A DNA stretch of 64,000 nt from an uncultured Bacillota bacterium (lineage in GTDB: Bacteria > Sysuimicrobiota > Sysuimicrobiia > Sysuimicrobiales > Segetimicrobiaceae): NCBI GenBank assembly GCA_963804645.1, contig CAWDRG010000015.1, positions 192,001-256,000 of the forward strand, given 5' to 3'. The position numbers and the translations under genes were made by a program. The notes beneath the pieces are model-generated. The model ran no database searches. It was not told the DNA's origin and saw nothing but the letters and a program-made list of their open reading frames with translations. Positions 1,216 through 50,489 of this stretch are shown in pieces. Position 1 is the stretch's first letter, and the number at the start of each line of letters is the position of its first letter.

Positions 1216-3932
1216 ATGAGTTCCGGGACGATGGTGCCCCGCGACGATATTGTGAGCACAAAGCTGCGCATCCCGCACGTCCGGCCACACCTCGTGCACC
1301 GGGAGCGATTGATCGCGCGGCTTGAGGCCGGTCGTGATGGTCTTCTCACGCTGGTTTGCGCCCCGGCTGGCTTCGGGAAGACCACCCTGATTGTCGACTG
1401 GCTTCGATCGAGGGCAGTGGACGCGCAGGTCCAGATCCCCGTTGCGTGGCTCTCTCTCGACGAAAGCGATAACGATCCGATCCAGTTCATCCGTCTCCTT
1501 ACCGCCGCAGTCGACAACGCCATCCCGGGGATAGGGAAGACAATCTTGGCAATGACCCAGTCGCCCCAGCCGCCGCGGTTAGAAACGCTACTCACCATCC
1601 TCATCAACGAGCTCGTGGCGGTTCAGCAGAGGGTCATCCTGGTGCTGGAAGACTACCATGTCATCCGGCAAACGTCCGTTCAGGCGGCCGTCGCGTTCCT
1701 GCTCGAGCATCTGCCACAGGCTCTCCACATGGTCATCGCGACCCGCGAGGATCCGCCGTTTCCACTCACCCAACTGCGGGCCCGCGGAGCTCTGTGCGAG
1801 GTGCGGGCGGGCGACCTCCGTTTCACGATCGGGGAGACTGCCGCGTTTCTCCGAGATGTGATGGGACTTTCGGTGTCCGCTCAGGATGCGGCCGCCCTTC
1901 GGGCGCGGATGGAGGGATGGATCGTCGGGCTGCAGTTGGCCAGCCTCTCGGTCCAGGGAAATGTGGCCGGCTTCATCGCGGCCGTCGAAGGTTCCGATCG
2001 CAACATCCTCGATTATCTGCGTGAGGAGGTGCTCGCGCACCAGCGGCCCGCGGTCCACGACTTTCTGTTGCGTACGGCCGTGCTCGATCGCTTGACTGGT
2101 CCTCTTTGCGACGCGATTCTCGGAAATCAGCAACCGGGCGCTTCCCAGGGGCTGCTCGAGGAGATCGAGCGCCGCAACCTCTTTCTTGTCTCGCTCGATG
2201 CGGACCGACTGTGGTATCGTTATCACCCCCTATTTGCCAATCTCCTGTATCTGCAGCTTCGGTACACGCAGCCGACCGTCATCCCTGAACTGCACCGGCG
2301 CGCGAGTGTGTGGTTTGAGGAGCAAGAGATGATGGGCCAGGCGATCCGGCACGCCCTGGCGGCGGCCGACTTTGACCGCGCAGCTCGTCTCATTACGCGC
2401 GAGGGCGTGCACGCGATTACACGCGGTGAGGTCCATACGGTGCTGGGCTGGTTCGAGGCCCTTCCCGCTGACCGGGCGCGAACACAACCGCTGCTCGGCA
2501 CCGTGCATGCGATCGCGTTGGTCATTGCCAATCAACTCGAACGCGCCGAAGCTCGTCTTCGGGATGCGGAGCGCCACCTCCCCTTCGATGCCCTCCCGGC
2601 GGAGGCGGAGCTCGTGCGGGGACGCGTCGCGCTGTTCCGTTCGATTATTGGCGTCACCACCGGCAATCTTGCGGGGAACGCGATGCTCGCGACCGAGGCG
2701 CTGCGCCTCCTGCCGGAAGACGATCTCTGGGGCCGGTCCACGGCACAGACGCTCGCTGCCCTCGCGTTCAGAGCGAGCGGGGATGCCTCGATCGACGCCG
2801 AGCATACGGTCGCCGAGGCGGTGCGGCACGTCAGGCTCAACGGCATCCCGGTCCTCATGCGCGTGAGCCTCGGGGCGCTGGGGCTGTTGTACATGAGCCA
2901 GGGGCGGCTTCGACGAGCGGCGGCACAGTTCGCTGAGGCGGTGCAAGTGTTGGACGCCGGACTTCCTCTCGGCTTCCCACTGCCCGCCTTCGGCTACGGA
3001 GAACTCCTTGCGGGAGTGGAACGAACTCGACCAAGCCGAGCTCTTCCTGACTCAAGGCATTGCGGCGCTCACGGACAGCAACCTCTTTGACGCGTATGCC
3101 GCGGCGAACGGGTACATCTCTCTCGCTTATCTGTGGCAGGCGCGCGGCGATGCCGGTCGTGCCATCGCGACGCTCGACGCGTTCACTGTTTTGACGAAGC
3201 AGCGAGAGATGGGCGGCGGTCGCGCCTCGAGTGGCCGCCGCTCGAGCGCATCTCTGGTTGATGCAGGGCAACCTCGCGGCGGCGACCCGTTGGGCGAACT
3301 CGAGTGGCGTCGATCTGGAGGAGTCCGTCAGTTTCCTCCGGGAACCGGAGTACTTCATCGTGGCACGTGTAATGATCGCGAAGAAGAACCGTGCCGTACT
3401 CGCGTTGCTCGATCGGCTCTTGCAGGACGCCGAAAGCCGTGGCCGGATGGGGAGCGCGATTCGGATCCTAGTCCTTCGCGCCCTGGGTCTTCAGGCGCTT
3501 GCGGACCCCGCCGGCGCCCTCCACGCTCTCGAGAAGGCGCTCGCCCTCGGCGCCCCTGAGGGCTACGTGCGCGTGTTCGTCGATGAGGGTGCCCCGATGG
3601 CCAAGTTGCTGCGCCGCGCGCGCGTCGGGGGGATCGTACCGGACCACGCCGCTCGACTGCTCGGTGTGTTTCGAGGCCCGGCGGCGGATGTCTCGACGGG
3701 GAGCGCTCCGCATCAACCGGGGGGCCCGGGCGCGTTCGCAGAACCGCTCACGGATCGCGAGCGCGAGATCCTGCGGCTCATTGTGGCGGGGGCGTCGAAC
3801 CGGGAGATCGCTCGGAGGTTAGTCGTCACGACAAATACCGTGAAAGTACACGTGTATCATCTCTTCGGAAAATTGGACGTCAAGAGCCGCACACAGGCGG
3901 TGATTAAGGCAAAGGAACTCGGGCTCGACTAG
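1216..3932 (+). CDS. MalT-like ATP-dependent LuxR-family regulator, with frameshifts near 3010 and 3230
   Basis: STKLRIP start, Walker A APAGFGKTT, WLSLDESDND, WYRYHPLF, C-terminal HTH PLTDREREILRLI...SNREIARRLVVTTNTVKVH; split over three frames. Confidence 0.9.
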
Positions 3933-4020
3933 CTGTCTCGTCGTTTTTTCCCGCCAGAATATTAGCCCCGCGTACTACTTAAGTAGGGCGAAGCCGATTG
4001 CCCGGATGCGCTAGGATTAC
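3879..4020 (+). repeat. Direct repeat copy 1 (~140 bp: end of luxR gene plus downstream palindrome)
   Basis: gtcaagagccgcacacaggcggtgat...gcgtactacttaagtagggcgaagccga...taggatt recurs at 7596-7733. Confidence 0.9.
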
Positions 4021-4084
4021 GGCGTGCGAACGGTCGCGGCCGCAGCGCAAGAGCTAAGATCGCCGCCAGTCGCCGTTTCGCATC

Positions 4085-4220
4085 CCGCGCCAAGGTGGTC
4101 AAGGGCGGCTTGCACTTGTGCGCGCCCAACTACCGCCTGCGCTATCGCCCGGCGACGCGGCAGCCGCAGACGATTGATGCCGGGATGAGCCACATCGGGT
4201 TCTGCTGCGTCGCCCGCACC
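4085..4220 (+). pseudogene. C-terminal remnant of a formylglycine-generating-enzyme (SUMF1/FGE-sulfatase) family gene
   Basis: KVVKGGLHLCAPNYRLRYRPATRQPQTIDAGMSHIGFCCV resembles the family tail KGGSHLCAPNYCxRYRPAAR...SHIGFRC; no N-terminus. Confidence 0.7.
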
Positions 4221-4397
4221 GGCGGGACCGGGACCCGGGATGCAGGTAAAGACCAGGATCCGGTTCGTCATCACCGTGACGGGGACCGGCGGCGGTTTCC
4301 GGTCGGGCGATCACTTCAGCGCAGGGAGGTGGGATTACAAAGTCATCAGATGGTCGCTACGGTACGCCTAAATCGTAGAGAGAAGGATGGTGGTGGA

Positions 4398-5018
4398 ATG
4401 TCCAGCATGCTTCGGATGTCCAAAGTGGCGGTGCTTGTTGCCGTGGCGCTCGTTGTGGGGATGCTTCCGCTTCAGCTCAACGCGCAGTCGATGCCGACGA
4501 CGATGGCGACGCTCCCAGCAAATCCGCCGACATGGTACCACGGGGACACATGGACCTGGACGGGCCCCCAGGGGGGCATGATGGCCATGATGGTAGAGAG
4601 CGCCGCGACCGATGGGTCATACACGATCTCCGGCATGGGCGCCGGTGTGCGGCCCAACATGGAGTGGGGTGCCCTCTTTCAGAAGCAGCAGGTCGGCAAC
4701 TTCTTGTTCCTGGACTGGCCCCTGACCGCCAACAAGAAGTGGACGGATCAGGGTACCAGGTTCGATTACGTGTGGCGAGTCGGCCCGGTGCAGTCGGTGA
4801 CGGTGCCGGCCGGTACGTTCTCAGCCGTGGAGCTCCTGTGTTCGGTTCTGACGAAGCCGGCTGGGAACCCGCCGGTACAGCAGCAGGCGGGCACAGGGTT
4901 TGCCTGGTACGCGCCGTCGGCAAAGACCATCGTGAAGCTCCAGTTCGGACCGGAGGCCTCGTGGCCGGCCGGGGTCCGAAACAAGTCGGTCGTGTTGACG
5001 AAGTACACGATTCACTAA
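4398..5018 (+). CDS. Secreted hypothetical protein
   Basis: Signal peptide MSKVAVLVAVALVVGMLPLQLNAQ; VTVPAGTF and WYAP motifs; coding-like codon bias. Confidence 0.75.
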   Translation: MSSMLRMSKVAVLVAVALVVGMLPLQLNAQSMPTTMATLPANPPTWYHGDTWTWTGPQGGMMAMMVESAATDGSYTISGMGAGVRPNMEWGALFQKQQVGNFLFLDWPLTANKKWTDQGTRFDYVWRVGPVQSVTVPAGTFSAVELLCSVLTKPAGNPPVQQQAGTGFAWYAPSAKTIVKLQFGPEASWPAGVRNKSVVLTKYTIH

Positions 5019-5304
5019 ATCGAGCTTTGTTGGGGGAGGCATTATCGTGGCTACCGGTTCGGCGAGTGGGCCGTGTGCGTGTGCGTGCTCAACTCCATGG
5101 TGCTGGCGAGTGCTTCCCCCACGTCGCGGCGGCAACAGGTCATTGATACGCGGGGACCACGTAGATGCGCCGGAGCGCTGATTGGGAGACCCATGAATGC
5201 AGAGTGCGCCGTTATACTTGCAGCGAAAGCTGGCGAAGACGACGGAACTCATGAGGATCAGCTGCCAACTTCTCACGATAAGCAGTTCAATGACTAAGGA
5301 GAGC

Positions 5305-6090
5305 ATGATGCTACTCGAAAGCAAATCAGCCATCGTCACCGGCGCGGCCGGCGGAATCGGCAAAGCGATTGCGGAGGTGTTTGCCCGCGAAGGCGCCAAG
5401 GTCGCAATCGCCGACCTCAACAAACAAGGAGCCGACGCGACCGCGAAAGAGTTCTGCGCGAAGGGCGGGGTTGCACTCGCAGTAGCCATGGACGTCACTG
5501 ACGAGCAAGCCGTGAACAAGGGCGTGGCTACCGTTGTTTCCGCGTTCGGCGGAGTCGATATCCTCGTCAGCAACGCCGGTATTCAGATCGTCCATCCCAT
5601 CGAAGAGTTTAGTTACGCCGAGTGGAAGACGATGATGGCCATCCACCTCGATGGCGCGTTCTTGACCACGCGGGCCTGTATTCCGCACATGTACAAGTCT
5701 GGCCGGGGTGGCAGCATCATCTACATGGGTTCGGTCCACTCTAAGTTAGCCTCAGTACTGAAAGCGCCTTACGTGACTGCGAAGCATGGCCTCCTGGGGC
5801 TTGCCAGGACGATTGCCAAGGAGGGCGCGGAACATGGCGTGCGCACCAATGTGATCTGCCCCGGCTTCGTGCGCACGCAGCTGGTCGAGAAGCAAATTCC
5901 AGAGCAGGCGGAAACGCTGGGCATTTCCGAAGAGGACGTCATCAAGAAGGTTATGCTCAAGGACACGGTCGATGGCGAATTCACTACGTTAGCGGACGTT
6001 GCCGCAGCGGCTTTGTTCTTCGCCGCTTTCCCCACCAATGCGTTGACTGGTCAATCGCTGGTCGTCAGCCACGGCTGGTTCATGGAGTAG
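5305..6090 (+). CDS. bdhA: 3-hydroxybutyrate dehydrogenase (SDR)
   Basis: [60 protein letters not shown] aaggag. Confidence 0.9.
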
Positions 6091-6204
6091 AGTTTCCGCG
6101 TCTCGGCAGACCGGCTCAGAGAACCATCTTTTCACTCACGGATCGGGGTGTGCTCAGGTGGTAAGTTAGACGGCGGCGAGAGACAGCAGGGTGAAGGAGG
6201 AGCG

Positions 6205-6948
6205 ATGCAGCCGGTTGGAAGAGCGCTGGATGTGGCTCTGATCATCATGCAGAGCGGCGGCTCGACCGTCATGGCGGAGCGCACGTTCCAGAACATCCTC
6301 AGGGGATACGGTGCGGAAGGAATTTCCGCAGCGTGGCGGCTGGATGTCGTCACCGCATTCGGGGTGGCGGAAGGCCGGTCTTCGACGGTGCTGCGGCAGG
6401 TTGGCCCCATCGGCATCAACCTCGTGCGCGCGTCCAATGCAGCGGTCCTTGGCGAGCAGGTGGCACAGGGAACGATCGATGTCGCGCAACTCGATGCCGA
6501 GATCGCCCGCGTCAAGGCGCTCGCGCCTCCCTACGGCCGCTGGGCAACAATCGCCGCGGCTGCTCTCACGGCCGCGTTCTTTGCCCGGCTTCTCGGAGGT
6601 GATTGGCGGGCAGCCGGCATCGTCCTTGTGGCTGCGGGCATTGGACAGTTCTTTCGCTCTCCGCTGCAGGCCCTAAAAGTCTCAGGCGCTAACGCGACCC
6701 TCATTTGTGCCCTGATCTCGACGTGCGTCGCCGCTTTGGGGATACGGTTGGGTGTCAGCCATGTGGTGCCGGCGACACTGATCGCCTCGATTATCTACAT
6801 GGTACCCGGGCTCGCGTTGATCAATGGGTTTGTGGACGTGGTGTCTCAGAAGCATCTGCTTGTGGGATTGGAACGGATCGCAAACGCCGTGTTTTTGTTC
6901 TTGGTTTTGGCGATTGCCATTGCGGTCGCTGACACATTTGTGTTGTAA
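6205..6948 (+). CDS. Threonine/serine exporter family (ThrE-like) subunit 1
   Basis: IMQSGGSTVMAE N-terminus, multiple TM helices, MVPGLALINGFVD; RBS ggagg. Confidence 0.75.
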   Translation: MQPVGRALDVALIIMQSGGSTVMAERTFQNILRGYGAEGISAAWRLDVVTAFGVAEGRSSTVLRQVGPIGINLVRASNAAVLGEQVAQGTIDVAQLDAEIARVKALAPPYGRWATIAAAALTAAFFARLLGGDWRAAGIVLVAAGIGQFFRSPLQALKVSGANATLICALISTCVAALGIRLGVSHVVPATLIASIIYMVPGLALINGFVDVVSQKHLLVGLERIANAVFLFLVLAIAIAVADTFVL

Positions 6949-44905: not shown

Positions 44906-47310
44906 GTCCGCACACTCGAACAAATGCTTGACTTCGGAAATCTGTCTGTTATTATACAGACAGACACAATGGAGTCGTCAAGATGCCGTGCGGTCCCCAG
45001 GCGGATGACGCTCCGGCCCCGCGCTGGCCGTCGTCCCCACAGCGCTCCTCCGGGCGCGGTGCACCGGATCCATCACCTCGGGCCGCATCCGATCATCGCG
45101 CACTTCCTCGAACGCCTCACCCTGGAGCCCATCATTCGCGGCTGCGTGGGCACGCGCGCCAGGGGGTCGTCGATCACGCGCGCACGCTCGCCGTGCTGGT
45201 GCACAACCTGCTCGTCTCCCCCGGCCCGCTGTATCGGATCGCCACGTGGCTCGCGCCGGTGGAGCCCGCGGTGCTGGCGCTGACCCCCTCGCAGTACGCG
45301 GCGATCAACGACGATCGGGTGGCGCGGGCCCTGGATGCGCTCACCTCCGAACGGGGGCGCAGCATATGGTTCCGCTTGGCCTTGCGCATCATCAAGCAGT
45401 TTGAACTTGCGACGGAGCGGTTCCACCACGACACGACCACGGTCACGTTCCAGGGCGCCTACGCGACTGCCCACGGCAAGCCCCACATCACCCATGGGCA
45501 CAACAAAGATCACCGCCCGGACCTCAAGCAGCTCGTCTTCGGCCTCACCGCCACTGCCGATGGCGCAATCCCCGTGTGGCACGACGTCCATAGCGGCAAC
45601 CGCAGCGACGATACGGTGCACCGGAGCACCGTGGACGCCTTGCGGACGCTCGTGGGCCGCGCGGAGTTCATCTACGTGGCCGATGCCAAGCTCTGCACCC
45701 AGGACAATCTGCGGCATATCGCGGCCTATGGCGGGCAATTTGTCACCGTGATGCCGCGGACCTGGAAAGAAGACCATCACTTCCGCGATCGGCTGCGGGA
45801 CCATGGCATTCGGTGGCACCCCATTCTCCGCATCGCCAACCACCGGCACAAGGATGGTCCGCCAGACATCTTCGCGAGCTGTGCGGGTACGTACACGACC
45901 ACGGCCGACGGATATCGGATGATCTGGATCCGGAGCTCGCAGAAAGCGGTCGAGGACGCGCAGGCGCGGGAGCGACGCCTCGCCCAGGCCCAGGCCACGC
46001 TGCGGGAGTTCCAAGACAAACTACCGCGGCAGCGGCGACGGGATCGGACCCACGGGGGAATCCAGCGTGCGGTCACCAAGATTCTCCGCGAGACCGGCAC
46101 CCGGCCATTTCTCCAGGTGACCGTGAAGCGCCACGTCGAGCAGCGTCGCCACTATCTACGGCGCGGCCGGCCCACCGCCGAGACGCCGGTGGAGGTCGAA
46201 CGACACACGACCTACACGCTGGACGTGCGCCGCGATGGGCAGGCCCTGGCCCGCGAGCGGCGCACCGATGGGGTCTTCCCGCTCGTGACGAACTGAGGTT
46301 GCCCCGGTTCCGTGGAGGGTCAATCGCTTGAGTATCAGCCCTTTACCACCACCTCTCGCATGGTTCTTGTTGTTCTCTGCTCGGCCGCCGCACGTCGTCG
46401 TCTCTCGGCGGGGGTATCTGGATGTCTTCCCCCTCTCATAGAATCGCTGTGAGCGCATCCTAGCCGCCTGCTTCGCTGAGCATTTCATCTCGACTGCGCT
46501 CCGCGGACGGCCGTTGGCGCTGTGACCCCCGCCGTTCGAATTCTGCGGGCGAGAGATATCCAGCGCAGAGTGACGCCGGTGGGAATTGTAGAAACCCTCG
46601 ATGTAATCGAAGAGCGCCAGCCGCGCTGCCTTCGCGTGGCGAACGTGTGCTGCTGTAAGAGCTCCGTCTTGAGCGACGCGAAGAAGGCTTCGGCGAGGGC
46701 ATTATCATACGCGTCGCCGACGGAGCCCATCGACGGCACGACGCCCGCGTCTTGGCAGCGCCGACTGAAGGTCAGGCTCGTGTACTGCGCGCCGCGATCG
46801 GAGTGATGCACGACGCCCGACCGCCGGCCGCCGGTTCCACACCGCCATGTTGAGCGCGTCCACGACCAGTTCGGTCCGCAGCGTGTCCGCCATCGCCCAG
46901 CCGACGATCCGGCGACTCCACGCATCCAGCACCGTCGCCAGATAGAGCCACCCTTCCGCGGTGGGCACGTACGTGATGTCTGCGACCCAGAGCTGATCGG
47001 GCGCGGAGGCCGTAAAATTCCCGCTTCACGAGGTCCGGCGCCGCGGCCGCCTCGCGATCCTGCCGCGTGGTGCCACGGTACCGTCGCCGCTGGGCGCCCG
47101 CCAGTCCGGCCGCGCGCATCAGACCGCGCGACCCGTTTCCGCCCACAGCTGGAGGCCTGCGCCTGGAGCTCGGCATGGATCCGCGGCGCCCCGTAGGTTC
47201 CCGGCTCTCCTCATGAATCGCTTGGATCTGCGCGAGCAGGCCTTGATCCGCCTGCGCCCGCGCCGAGGGTGGACGATCCACCACGCGTAGAACCCGCTGG
47301 GACAGTGGCT

Positions 47311-49370
47311 TCATACTACACCTCCGGCAGTAGCCTTTTGGAGTGACGGTTTGAGGTGCACGGGGGTGGCGGTCCTCTGGCGACACGCCTCTTCGACCGC
47401 CGGAGAAAAAGGAACACACAAGCGACCGCTCGTGTCGCGACGCGCTGCAAGCTTGCCTGCGTGGATCCAATCGTATACTGTCCATTTGCTGACCCCCAGT
47501 CGGCGGACAACCTCGCAGACCGTCAGCTCTCCTGGGCGAGGCTGAAAGGACGATGCAGGAATGTGGTAGGTGTGGCGGATCCAGCGGACAGATTTCACAT
47601 CAAATGGCCGCCCCCCTTTCCGGGTCATTCCCGCCGTGTTGAGTGCGGTGACGATCTCATCATCCTGCTGCATCGCCAGCGCCCGAATCAGATCGACGAC
47701 CGCACCCGGCGTCCGTTGAAGATCGCTGGCTGAGGCAGGGCGCTGGACGACGAGCTCCTCAGTCGCACCCGAGCGCCAGCGAATGCCGACGCCTACACGC
47801 GCACTGCCTGGAGCGGACCGTATCGTTACGTCCGCGACGAGCGCGCGAAGAATCCGCTTGCGGTCTGGGGCCGAGGTCGTAGGAGCAGCCCACAACGCGG
47901 GCACGTTGCGAGCGAGCGCCTCCAATTCTTGGCGCGATGGCAGCGGCGGCGCCTCCGCGCGCGCCCCCGCTAACGCGGTTTCCGCTTCCGCCAATGCGAC
48001 GAGCGCAGTTTCCCATCGTTGCTCCAGGCTCCGCGCCACAAGGCGGTTCTCCGGCTCACACTGATGGAACGCTCGCTCCGCCCGCGCCGCCTCATAGCGC
48101 GCCCGCTCCACCGGGAGTTCAGCGGCCCGGATGCGATTGGTCCGTCGTGCTGCGATCTCATCGGCGGCCTGGAGTGCCAGAGCAATCTGGTCTGTCGTGA
48201 CCACGTCTAACATCCGCCGGGCCACGGCATCATCGATCACATCCGCCCGAACCGTGCGACACTGCGGAGTCTGGAGGTGCTCGACACGGGAATAGGAACA
48301 ATCGTAGGCGGCCTTTCCGGAGGCATAGGAAGCATACCTCGGCGTCATCATCCGGCCACAGCCGCCGCACACGACGATCCCTTGCAGCAGCGCCTCGCCT
48401 TCCCGCGCAGGGCGTGCGCCTCCGCTCGTGTGGTTATGCGCCAACCGGTCCAGATTTGCAAGATAGGTCTCCCAGCTGATGTACGCGGGGTGATGGTGAG
48501 GGAGAACCACAAGCCATTCCTCCCGCGGAAGCTCTACTCGCTTCCGCCGAATTGAGCCATCCGGCTGTACGATGCGCCGGCATCGGTATCGTCCAAAGAC
48601 GTAGGTCCCAGCATAGACCGGGTTGGAAAGCATGCCAAGCACCCGGTAGTACGTGAGCCGGCCCCACCGGATCTCTCCCGTCCAGACGCCCCCGTGCACT
48701 CGCCGAGGAAACGGACGCCGGCGAAAGATGCCCGCCGCGCCATATGCTGATCCGCTGGCCTCGAACGCGGCGAAGACGTCTGTGACGGCCTGCCGGATCT
48801 CCTCGTCCAAGTCCATCACGGTACGGCCGTCCTGATCATACACGTAGCCGACTGGCAGCGGAACGCGTAATTCACCACGGGCCGCCGCGGCACGTTTCGA
48901 CTCCTGCAACCGCCCGGCGAGGATATGAAGTTCTGCTTCGGACATTGCGCCCTTCAAGCCCAACAGGAGCCTGTCGTTAAAATGTTGCAGATTGTACACG
49001 CCGTCGGCATCGATGATCAGCGTGTCCGTCAGGTTGCAGAATTCCAACAATCGTTGGAGGTCCGCGGAACTGCGGGCTAACCGCGAGACCTCCAACCCCA
49101 AGATGGCGCCGACCTCGCCCAGGCACACCCGACTGACGAGCTCCTGAAACCCCGCACGGGTGGTGCCGCTGCGACCGGACAGGCCCAGATCGGCATCGAT
49201 CACGAGGATCTTGGATGCTTCCCACCCCAATCGGGTGGCTTCCTCCGCCAGTGCATACTGCCGGGCGGTGGACTCGGTGTGTTCGCGCACCTGGGTCATC
49301 GTGGACTGTCGCACATACACGATTGCCAGACGCTCCGGTGAGTGGGCGTGATCGTCCTCGCGTCGCTCAT
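47311..49370 (-). CDS. Large serine recombinase with Zn ribbon and C-terminal HTH (probable indel near 49335)
   Basis: AIVYVRQST, DLGLSG, EVSRLARS, NDRLLLGLKGAMSEAEL, CGGCG, EPENRLVARSLE. Confidence 0.92.
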
Positions 49371-49455
49371 GCGCGTTCCCCCCGGCGGCGAGCGCGGCCT
49401 CGAGCATGTTGGCCAGCGGCGCCACGAGTTCGCTCGTCGCGCCGCTGAACCCAAC

Positions 49456-49800
49456 TCAGGTCAGCTCCCCGCGGGTCAGCAGTTCCAGGTTGATCGCCGA
49501 GATCTCCGCCAGCGTCGCCTCGATGCGGGCGGTGAGCATGACCCGGCGGCGTACCGCCGCCGCCAGCGCCGCCGGAATATACAGGAGACGCCGTCCGTTC
49601 CCGCCGGACCGTCAGGAACACGTACGGACCGTGCAGCTCCCCCGCGCGCACCGGCAGCCCGGTTTCCCACACCGCCGGTGCTGGATTACCAGCGCCCCGT
49701 GCATGACCGCCTCGAGCGTCGGGAGGCTGCGTGCCCGTTGGGTCCGGCGCGCGCGTAATTGCCTCGCGCTGAGCTTGGCGAGTGGTATCTTTTGTATCAT
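49456..49800 (-). CDS. DUF6788-like protein, copy C (two apparent indels)
   Basis: HGALVIQHRRCGKPGCRCARG / ELHGPYVFL / LLYIP...EISAINLELL over three frames. Confidence 0.7.
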
Positions 49801-49839
49801 TGGTACCAAAGATATCACCTGCCGCGGGAAACGTCAAGG

Positions 49840-50112
49840 GGTGCGACAGCACCGCCACCACGCGGAGCACCTCCACCAGAATGGAGGCGGTGAGAGGGTG
49901 TGGCTCCGGAGGGGCGCCGCGATCGGTAAAAGCTTCTGGCAACGCAATACTGCCGGCTGGCCCGGCATCACAAATGTAGATACGTCCACGAGTGGCGTAG
50001 CGGCGTGTGACCAGTATGGGAAGTCGCTGGTCCCTCAGCGGATGAAACGGATGGGTGACAACGAGGGAATCCGAAAGACTACTGACTGCACTCGTAGTTT
50101 GCGTGGACCGTC
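49840..50112 (-). CDS. DUF5372 (Y4bD/Y4pK)-like ORF body lacking its own start codon
   Basis: VVTHPFHPLRDQRL...SIALPEAFTD; open to the element boundary; 3' end uncertain. Confidence 0.65.
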
Positions 50113-50189
50113 GGGGGAAACACCCAACACCCGGGCGAGCGTGGCGACGTGATGCGCGGCCTTCTCCTGTTGCATGAACGTAAACCCCG

Positions 50190-50489
50190 CTACGGGGTCG
50201 AGTTCGTTTCCCTGGCAAAGAAGGCCGCGGCTTTTCGGAGGATCTCGCGCTCTTCCCGCAAGATCCGGACTTCACGACGCAAGCGCCGCACCTCAGCGTG
50301 TTCCTCGGTCGTCAATCCATCGGTGCGCTTCCCGCGGTCGAGCTCATCCTGTTTCAGCCACGTGTAGAGCGACTGCTCCGACACTCCCAGATCCTTCGCA
50401 ATGCGCGCACGCGACTTCCCGGATTCTCGAACCAACCGGACCGCTTCCTCTCGAAACTGCCGTGCATACGGCGGTCGACTCTTTGGCAC
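50190..50489 (-). CDS. IS3 family OrfA
   Basis: YARQFREEAVRLV...IAKDLGVS...LREEREILRKAAAFFA. Confidence 0.9.
   Translation of the reverse strand: MPKSRPPYARQFREEAVRLVRESGKSRARIAKDLGVSEQSLYTWLKQDELDRGKRTDGLTTEEHAEVRRLRREVRILREEREILRKAAAFFARETNSTP

Follow-up and report, generated by a model that had tools for sequence, protein, structure and literature searches.

The locus examined here raises the question of how a gene can be expressed when its ribosome-binding site and start codon lie at one end of a mobile element and its body lies at the other. The element is found within a 64,000-nucleotide (nt) stretch of contig CAWDRG010000015.1, assembled from an uncultured Bacillota bacterium (GCA_963804645.1) and referred to in its full length as the window, where it occupies 2817 bp of the minus strand (47299-50115) inside orfB of an insertion sequence (IS) of the IS3 family. 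Its three genes, all read in one direction, encode a DUF5372 protein, a DUF6788 protein and a large serine recombinase. A preliminary description of this DNA had proposed that the attachment (att) site divides the DUF5372 gene and that an intact reading frame is assembled only on the excised circle. We found that this split architecture is real and conserved; from it we infer that circles form, that the fused open reading frame (ORF) is translated, and that its translation is confined to circles. As a whole, the locus is probably best explained by an att site that splits the DUF5372 gene, by completion of this gene on the circle, and by a recombination cofactor that the circle supplies.

Both pieces of the gene can be read directly in the window. 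At the right end of the element, the recombinase ORF finishes with GGA GGT GTA GTA TGA, its stop lying at 47313-47311 (minus strand), and the preliminary description was accurate in reporting a GGAGGT and an overlapping ATG at 47314. At the opposite end, the match to the DUF5372 profile (PF17342; 34.9 bits where 25 is the cut-off, E 1.6e-8, covering positions 1-49 of the 78-position profile; both genome copies score 36.9 bits) lies in the frame CGA CGG TCC ACG, starting at 50113, and no ATG, GTG or TTG occurs in this frame between 50113 and the domain, as had also been claimed.

A second copy of the element in the source genome (G000:C11:12985-15805, hereafter the C11 copy) matches window positions 50115..47299 exactly at both ends and differs in its flanks beyond them, which fixes the ends of the element. 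This copy is inserted in a DEDD/IS110 transposase gene (PF01548, E 4.6e-32), with three C at each junction. No uninterrupted copy of the IS3 target was found within the source genome; an uninterrupted IS3 relative in metagenome run X1 (one contig, depth 51.8) shows a run of five G there when read on the plus strand, and uninterrupted relatives of the IS110 target (5, from five related genomes) have three C there, reading LDTIPGV. With the left and right junctions (attL and attR) contributing 5+3 C in the window copy and 3+3 in the C11 copy, and with uninterrupted targets (attB) of five C in the IS3 and three in the IS110, three C are left for the circle (attP) in both cases, and this places the ATG at 47314 in frame with the DUF5372 ORF. 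In the junction built in silico, GGAGGT is followed after 5 nt by the ATG plus four codons and then by the start-less DUF5372 ORF in frame, the joined frame translating as MKPLS, then RRSTQ and on into the DUF5372 domain. The in-frame joint with three C that had been predicted thus agrees with two independent insertions and with uninterrupted copies of both targets. The accompanying claim that five C restore the IS3 orfB held in part: five C are indeed present in the uninterrupted relative, but orfB carries further one-base deletions downstream and needs several frame shifts at 46485-47298, where a base missing at 47277/47278 is present in X1 and X7 contigs.

Relatives were collected by a scan of species-representative genomes, which gave 224 stretches encoding relatives; 80 loci were kept, and the three-gene order is preserved in 73 of them. 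In these relatives the conserved peptide RRS.HT... starts right at the left element end, many integrated copies show an in-frame stop 1-5 codons upstream of that end with no start between, and the right-end consensus GGAGGTGCAGTATGAAGCCACCGTCC plus one more C (the core end) is kept up to the boundary. Placing the crossover by the longest substring common to both ends failed because chance matches were too numerous, and anchored rules were used instead. The anchored rule was applied to 66 cases (64 loci and the two own copies), and 39 were resolved at both ends. The 27 failures lacked one end (8), the arm motif (4) or a core after the motif (15); among the 15 coreless cases, the C11 copy, L020 and L050 were in frame by eye, L077, L078 and L088 were resolved further downstream, and no junction was assigned for L015, L026, L041, L070, L071, L073, L074, L079 and L090.

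Across the 39 resolved loci, which represent 37 distinct flank pairs, the two bases before the attL arm (GACGG or similar) are identical to the two bases ending the right arm at attR, an identity that defines a 2-bp core of CC, GA, CG, GG or TC depending on the lineage. The crossover is conservative, with a shared 2-bp core, no target duplication and rebuilt targets in frame. When these homologues were checked for a start split across the att site, as the preliminary description had suggested, an in-frame right-arm ATG was present in 37 of the 39; the two others are L013, with TTG at that position, and L067, with a one-base insertion that is missing from its sister copy L069 in the same genome. 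Counted by the ATGs themselves, 37 of the 38 found are in phase. An independent rule, the rebuilding of the reverse-transcriptase motif LGIP|TV.DR at attB, gave an in-frame start at 23 of 23 loci with a matching core (22 ATG, 1 TTG only). All these loci are related by descent, so that they cannot be counted as independent trials; the range of different cores and target genes nevertheless indicates that the split relation has survived much divergence.

The starts available to the DUF5372 frame in the integrated state were counted in 60 distinct resolvable copies, from the nearest upstream in-frame stop to the domain. No ATG, GTG or TTG at all is available in 14 copies, the C11 copy included; 16 have only an internal GTG or TTG, 16 a GTG or TTG in the flank (among them the window copy, with a GTG at 50275 in the IS3, 54 codons upstream), and 14 an ATG that occurs in the flank by chance. 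When 1.84 billion database representatives were searched with a profile, the family was found to have 734 members at E <= 0.001 and 163 at <= 1e-10, and the called N-termini of family members lie at scattered, unrelated places. In the 52 longer proteins that were fetched, unrelated flank-derived sequence stands before RRS and the right-arm peptide occurs in none, and the four nearest homologues likewise carry flank-derived N-termini. The lesson for annotation is that DUF5372 proteins in databases bear arbitrary N-termini taken from flanking DNA.

The structure of the DUF5372 protein was modelled with AlphaFold2 from 56 sequences. The model has a mean predicted local distance difference test score (pLDDT) of 83.5, with four strands and a C-terminal helix at residues 76-90, and falls to a mean pLDDT of 50 over residues 1-10, with no secondary structure before residue 16; it is predicted to be an SH3-like barrel with one helix. 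A Foldseek search against the PDB gave nothing at E <= 0.001 (best E 0.14), and in a wide VIA-align search the best Z was 5.8 (root-mean-square deviation 2.3, 49 aligned), all matches being SH3, KOW, Tudor or PsaE-like barrels. Since the SH3-like barrel is a common arrangement, no function follows from these fold searches. We also modelled the complex between DUF5372 (alignment of 56) and the recombinase of 686 residues (alignment of 32); it scored 0.67 against 0.00 for the best of 3 controls, with contacts agreeing between runs at 81% or more and a partner pLDDT of at least 70; the mark used is reached by 116 of 157 solved complexes and by 2 of 215 mismatched pairs. The modelled interface pairs recombinase residues 334-340, 366-370, 390-406 and 477-539 with DUF5372 residues 21-26 (the invariant HPFHPL) and 67-90. 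Residues 334-340 and 366-370 belong to the zinc ribbon, and 390-406 and 477-539 flank a presumed coiled coil whose position is inferred from sequence. The model thus supports a placement of DUF5372 on the zinc ribbon of the recombinase, next to the presumed coiled coil. The junction of DBD2 and coiled coil is also where predictions place verified directionality factors (PMC12286644), and a role of DUF5372 as a recombination cofactor gains support from the modelling.

The sequence reveals a small transposon-like unit, presumably moved by its large serine recombinase, with an att site inside the 5' end of the DUF5372 gene and a 2-bp crossover (CC here) that falls in codon 5/6. In the chromosome, the gene exists as two pieces 2.8 kb apart, namely, a ribosome-binding site, ATG and four more codons at the right end and a start-less body at the left end; joining the ends at the core, as would happen on excision to a circle, gives one open frame. 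We propose that the circle carries the gene order DUF6788, recombinase, DUF5372, read from a putative internal promoter before DUF6788, so that full DUF5372 would be produced while the element is free as a circle and hardly at any other time. The first ~20 residues of the protein would form a disordered tail, variable enough to meet whatever sequence the att site requires. DUF5372 may then be regarded as a recombination-state sensor built in DNA, a cofactor that would be supplied only to circles. Because there would be little point in producing a pro-excision factor once excision is complete, we favour a cofactor that serves the circle; it would most plausibly favour or secure integration, or block the reverse reaction, although the direction of the effect is a guess, and the integration event itself would shut off the supply.

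A more specific version of this proposal seems to us rather unlikely. DUF6788 and the recombinase, made in both states, would favour excision, and DUF5372, made on circles only, would take the site of a directionality factor where zinc ribbon and coiled coil meet and turn the enzyme to integration, which would split the DUF5372 gene and end the supply, the whole forming a self-resetting directionality switch. If this were true, gene topology, and not regulation, would encode the control of directionality; the family of mini-elements concerned is widespread and homes to conserved motifs of group II intron reverse transcriptases, ISL3, IS110, IS3 and tyrosine integrases.

Several observations, given here and with the alternatives below, weigh against a DUF5372 gene completed on the circle. 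The circle junction was found neither in the contigs of metagenome runs X1, X2, X7 and X10, where the two other joints listed are low-likeness skips, nor in JGI metagenome contigs, where a junction pattern with ATGAAGCC gave 0 matches and a wider junction pattern gave 1 chance match (L093) with no homology to the element; since contigs rarely retain rare forms, a missing circle junction is weak evidence. A frame test on the flanks by G+C content at third codon positions agreed with the proposed frames in 31 of 47 cases and disagreed in 16, and 3 have no ATG; the test is noisy, and in several misses the frame is plainly wrong and contains stops. The 3' end of the recombinase gene contains a terminator-like hairpin (47435-47416), although such hairpins are no commoner than by chance, at 2 against 1.9 expected. 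Furthermore, as already implied, a classical pro-excision directionality factor made only on circles would make little sense.

Some of the contrary evidence would be accommodated if the in-frame ATG were a by-product, a view that we consider unlikely. The right arm would then be kept as recombinase site and gene 3' end, and DUF5372 would be made in both states from an internal start, be it TTG, GTG or a codon outside the canonical set, its N-terminal stretch remaining untranslated as att DNA or spacer. Linker codons 8-16 have an in-frame ratio of nonsynonymous to synonymous variation (pN/pS) of 1.31, column entropy is flat over codon positions with no third-position excess, and the variation of the right arm does not track codon positions. 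The Shine-Dalgarno (SD) sequence, the ATG and the motif CCACCGT all lie within ~30 nt of the core, so that their conservation could reflect binding by the recombinase. In-frame TTG or GTG codons stand 5-8 codons before the domain in many relatives, including the copies counted above in which they are the only start, and ~51 of the best 150 database representatives, about a third, begin at profile positions 14-20. An internal start codon in homologues had been named as a finding that would count against the split gene, and in this respect the window element is free of any such start but many relatives are not.

How the right arm changes between lineages, however, argues for a start codon. In one lineage, ATG AAG CCA has become TTG ATG CCA, two substitutions that keep an in-frame ATG exactly one codon (3 nt) further on, and L013 and L075 read TTG AAG, with TTG at the old ATG position. 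The SD sequence and ATG stay at the element end even where the recombinase stop lies elsewhere: the stop is 11 nt earlier in L028, L029, L034 and L040, where the ATG stays, and 128-354 nt upstream in L077, L078, L081 and L088, where a small extra ORF lies between and SD + ATGAAGCC... still ends at the element boundary. Across four lineages in which the stop is displaced to an earlier or far upstream position, the SD sequence and ATG remain 16 nt from the element end. Translational coupling to the recombinase, part of the original proposal, is consistent with the ATGA overlap seen here, but does not extend to other lineages, in which the ATG follows the stop by 2, 11 or 128-354 nt. Of the 27 distinct right ends, which are related by kinship, 26 have an SD-like core 4-11 nt before the ATG, compared with a rate of 10% for random positions, and no SD-like sequence was seen before the internal TTG in the loci read by eye.

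Length and reading frame point the same way. The element arm and THPFHP are separated by 57 nt in 55 loci, by 60 nt in 1 and by 63 nt in 11, which accounts for 67 of the 69 loci with an arm motif, the remaining two being one counting artefact and L083 (56 or 63 nt). Stops within this stretch occur in 0 of 68 cases in the DUF5372 frame, in 6 of 68 in frame +1 and in 29 of 68 in frame +2. The absence of any start codon from the element end to the domain in the window element, and of any start at all in the 14 copies noted above, is likewise difficult to reconcile with internal initiation. In our reading, the N-terminal stretch is probably a poorly constrained tail of a translated protein.

A relic would be another way to account for the locus: the window copy would be decaying and the split ORF without function in this genome, which we hold to be very unlikely. 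Compared with the C11 copy (minus strand), the window copy lacks four G in G runs, at 49334 (the recombinase start, about 49334-49337), 49594, 49599 and 49638, and differs by six substitutions, five of them with G in C11; the exception is 49767, where G stands in the window copy and A in C11. These changes break DUF6788 and the recombinase start in the window copy, and the surrounding IS3 orfB is frame-broken too. The DUF5372 frame has no normal stop in either copy: it is 249 codons long, closed by a TGA with which the ATG of the recombinase overlaps, and stays open for ~150 extra codons across DUF6788 in another frame (window 49367-49830). The frames of relatives stop after 77-114 codons, either near where DUF6788 starts or a few hundred bases earlier; the long form also occurs in the distant relative P0022 (269 aa). 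A third copy, L009 (G000:C9:1094000-1105000, ~5500-6870), is an 81% identical deletion remnant in which the N-terminal part of an IS110 is fused to the DUF6788 start, DUF5372 and part of the IS110 are deleted, and the recombinase is truncated. Against decay of the system stands the C11 copy, whose DUF6788 and recombinase (686 aa from the ATG) are intact. The same element is present in runs from six studies, nearly end to end in X1 and X2 and in pieces in X7 and X10, no RNA run being listed among those that contain it, and wherever contigs of these four runs cover a difference site, they agree with the C11 copy. Every missing base is a G from a run of G on a single strand, and the differences may be either a one-strand consensus error in the assembly or real decay. 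Moreover, the att ends of the window copy are intact, so that it could be moved in trans.

Most improbable of all is that DUF5372 is made in the integrated state from a start in the target flank by read-through from the target's promoter, and so depends on context rather than on the circle, for although in-frame flank starts exist in the numbers given above (the GTG of the window copy among them), gene callers output such flank-started proteins and many insertions are co-oriented with the target gene, these starts are conserved in neither place nor sequence, the target's frame is offset by one base and meets a stop after ~13-25 codons of element sequence, the target gene is in some cases antisense to the element, and the C11 copy has no start at all.

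The proposed completion of DUF5372 on the circle can be set beside known systems. No paper in the literature collection searched names DUF5372 or DUF6788, and general full-text searches gave circle-junction promoters and systems with an att site in a gene, with no split start among them; the split start is apparently an unpublished, conserved variant of state-dependent expression. A close likeness is to Tn4451/Tn4453 of Clostridium (recombinase TnpX), which share the small size, the large serine recombinase, the circular form and an expression signal produced only on the circle by the joined ends. The joint of Tn4451 reportedly forms a promoter for the recombinase gene, a finding attributed to Lyras and Rood in 2000. 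Here, in contrast, the joint completes the coding sequence of an accessory gene (SD sequence, ATG, four codons), and no sigma-70-like -35/-10 pair was found across the in-silico junction within 120 nt on either side by the scan rule applied to the rest of the region.

In the mycobacteriophage BPs system, a tyrosine integrase acts at a site near the 3' end of the gene, both forms are translated, and integration gives the active stable form. The present element differs in that the 5' end is split, the integrated form lacks a start, and the enzyme is a serine recombinase. The likeness lies in an att site inside a regulatory gene, so that integrated and free forms encode different products: BPs and its relatives show integration-dependent immunity with attP inside the repressor gene (PMC4557955). 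In ICEclc (Pcirc) and ICEKp1 (P3'end), circularisation is needed before a signal located at the far end of the element can drive a recombination gene (PMC13023037); those cases concern transcription of an integrase gene, tyrosine recombinases and large elements, whereas here an SD sequence, a start codon and four codons are moved by a serine recombinase in a 2.8-kb element. With directionality factors such as gp3 of phiC31 and the SPbeta recombination directionality factor, DUF5372 shares small size and, in the complex model, a position at the zinc ribbon beside the presumed coiled coil (PMC12286644 and PMC5814800). Known directionality factors are products of the integrated element and set off its excision, whereas DUF5372 would be made only after excision, and its fold searches gave only SH3-, KOW- or Tudor-like barrels (Z <= 5.8).

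If the proposal is correct, the element would represent a new kind of state signal, in which the att site separates the ribosome-binding site and start codon from the body of a recombinase-partner gene. Large serine recombinases are widely used in genome engineering, and if DUF5372 controls direction or integration, its family would comprise compact natural accessory factors for these enzymes. In the known mobile elements discussed above, state sensing takes the form of promoters formed or joined at the circle junction (PMC13023037) or of an att site within a repressor gene (PMC4557955). The elements are also parasites of parasites: their insertion in conserved motifs of mobile-element genes inactivates the intron or IS copy, and since the rebuilt target frames are open, precise excision would restore the interrupted intron or IS gene.

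Table 1. Coordinates of the features described for the element, its target and its relatives (window positions unless a locus is named).
Feature	Position	Strand	Remarks
Whole element	47299..50115	-	CCC at both ends; one of the two CCC is the target's
Large serine recombinase	47311..49370	-	Resolvase, recombinase and zinc-ribbon domains; C-terminal HTH_17
Shine-Dalgarno-like GGAGGT	47320..47325	-	In the last recombinase codons, 5 nt before the ATG
Split-gene head, ATG AAG CCA CTG TCC C	47299..47314	-	ATG 47314-47312 overlaps the recombinase TGA (ATGA)
Split-gene body, start-less DUF5372 ORF	49367..50113	-	Pfam domain ~49910-50059; first stop TGA 49369-49367
DUF6788 gene	49456..49818	-	Start ATG 49800-49798 or GTG 49818
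attL crossover region, five C	50113..50117	-	Followed by GACGGTCCACG; core taken as the last two C, element arm GACGG next
attR crossover region, three C	47299..47301	-	End of right arm, followed by IS3 orfB sequence AGCGGG
Target, left part: IS3 orfA (50190-50489) and orfB start up to the insertion	50116..50489	-	HTH_Tnp_1, E 9.9e-13
Target, right part: remaining IS3 orfB	46485..47298	-	Several frame breaks in the assembly
Sigma-70-like match, TTGACG, 17 nt, TATCTT	49809..49837	-	Ends 9 nt before the DUF6788 ATG; consensus match only
Inverted repeat, 23-nt arms, 78% complementary	49777..49823		Centred on the DUF6788 ATG
Extra cysteine-rich ORFs of relatives	L070:5992-6273, L088:3270-3488, L090:3153-3450		

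The other two genes of the element (Table 1) were assigned by their Pfam matches. The recombinase matches PF00239 (E 3.9e-19), PF07508 (1.7e-11) and PF13408 (1.6e-10), with HTH_17 at residues 634-666, and its N-terminal part contains YVRQST, the motif in which we take the nucleophile to lie; Y19, R21 and Q22 are invariant among 32 relatives. DUF6788 of the window copy scores 41.7 bits against PF20586, above the gathering score but over profile positions 2-43 only, the match being short because the frame is broken, and the intact C11 copy (121 aa) scores 77.4 bits (E 1e-21, profile positions 2-102 of 103).

Sigma-70-like matches number 2 in the region against 0.5 expected in shuffled sequences. 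A strict -35/-10 pair before DUF6788 was found in only 5 of 63 relatives, many of which show TATGAT there. A CTTGT...ACAAG repeat similar to that over the DUF6788 ATG was seen by eye at the same place in most relatives, often after TATGAT; it could serve as an operator or fold into an RNA hairpin that covers the start codon.

Nearly all insertions of the family are in genes that belong to other mobile elements. Of the 39 loci that were resolved, 24 lie in a group II intron-type reverse transcriptase at LGIP|TV.DR and 4 in an ISL3 transposase at GV|DE; other targets are IS3, IS110, IS1595/IS66, DDE_3 and tyrosine integrase genes, and one Cas3 HD domain gene. Cores differ by lineage, and in some insertions the element is antisense to its target gene. 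At L073 (100-200), the left flank is a reverse-complement reverse-transcriptase segment (...DRVVQAALK on the other strand) and the right flank is of the same kind in forward orientation, which suggests that the target was rearranged or inverted. In the window, a 437-codon ORF at 44983-46296 adjoins the IS3 and resembles another transposase; the region is a cluster of mobile elements. The L009 remnant has as its neighbour an ORF of 793 codons (3074-5455, minus strand), of low complexity and rich in F, L and S, which has the look of a simple-sequence tract or of an artefact of assembly.

In relatives of the Acidimicrobiales type, the recombinase and the right arm are separated by an additional small ORF rich in cysteine (C..C ... 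C...C); those of L070 and L088 gave no Pfam match. Finally, ~260-620 nt separate the DUF5372 stop from DUF6788 in L019, L023, L025, L037, L042 and others.

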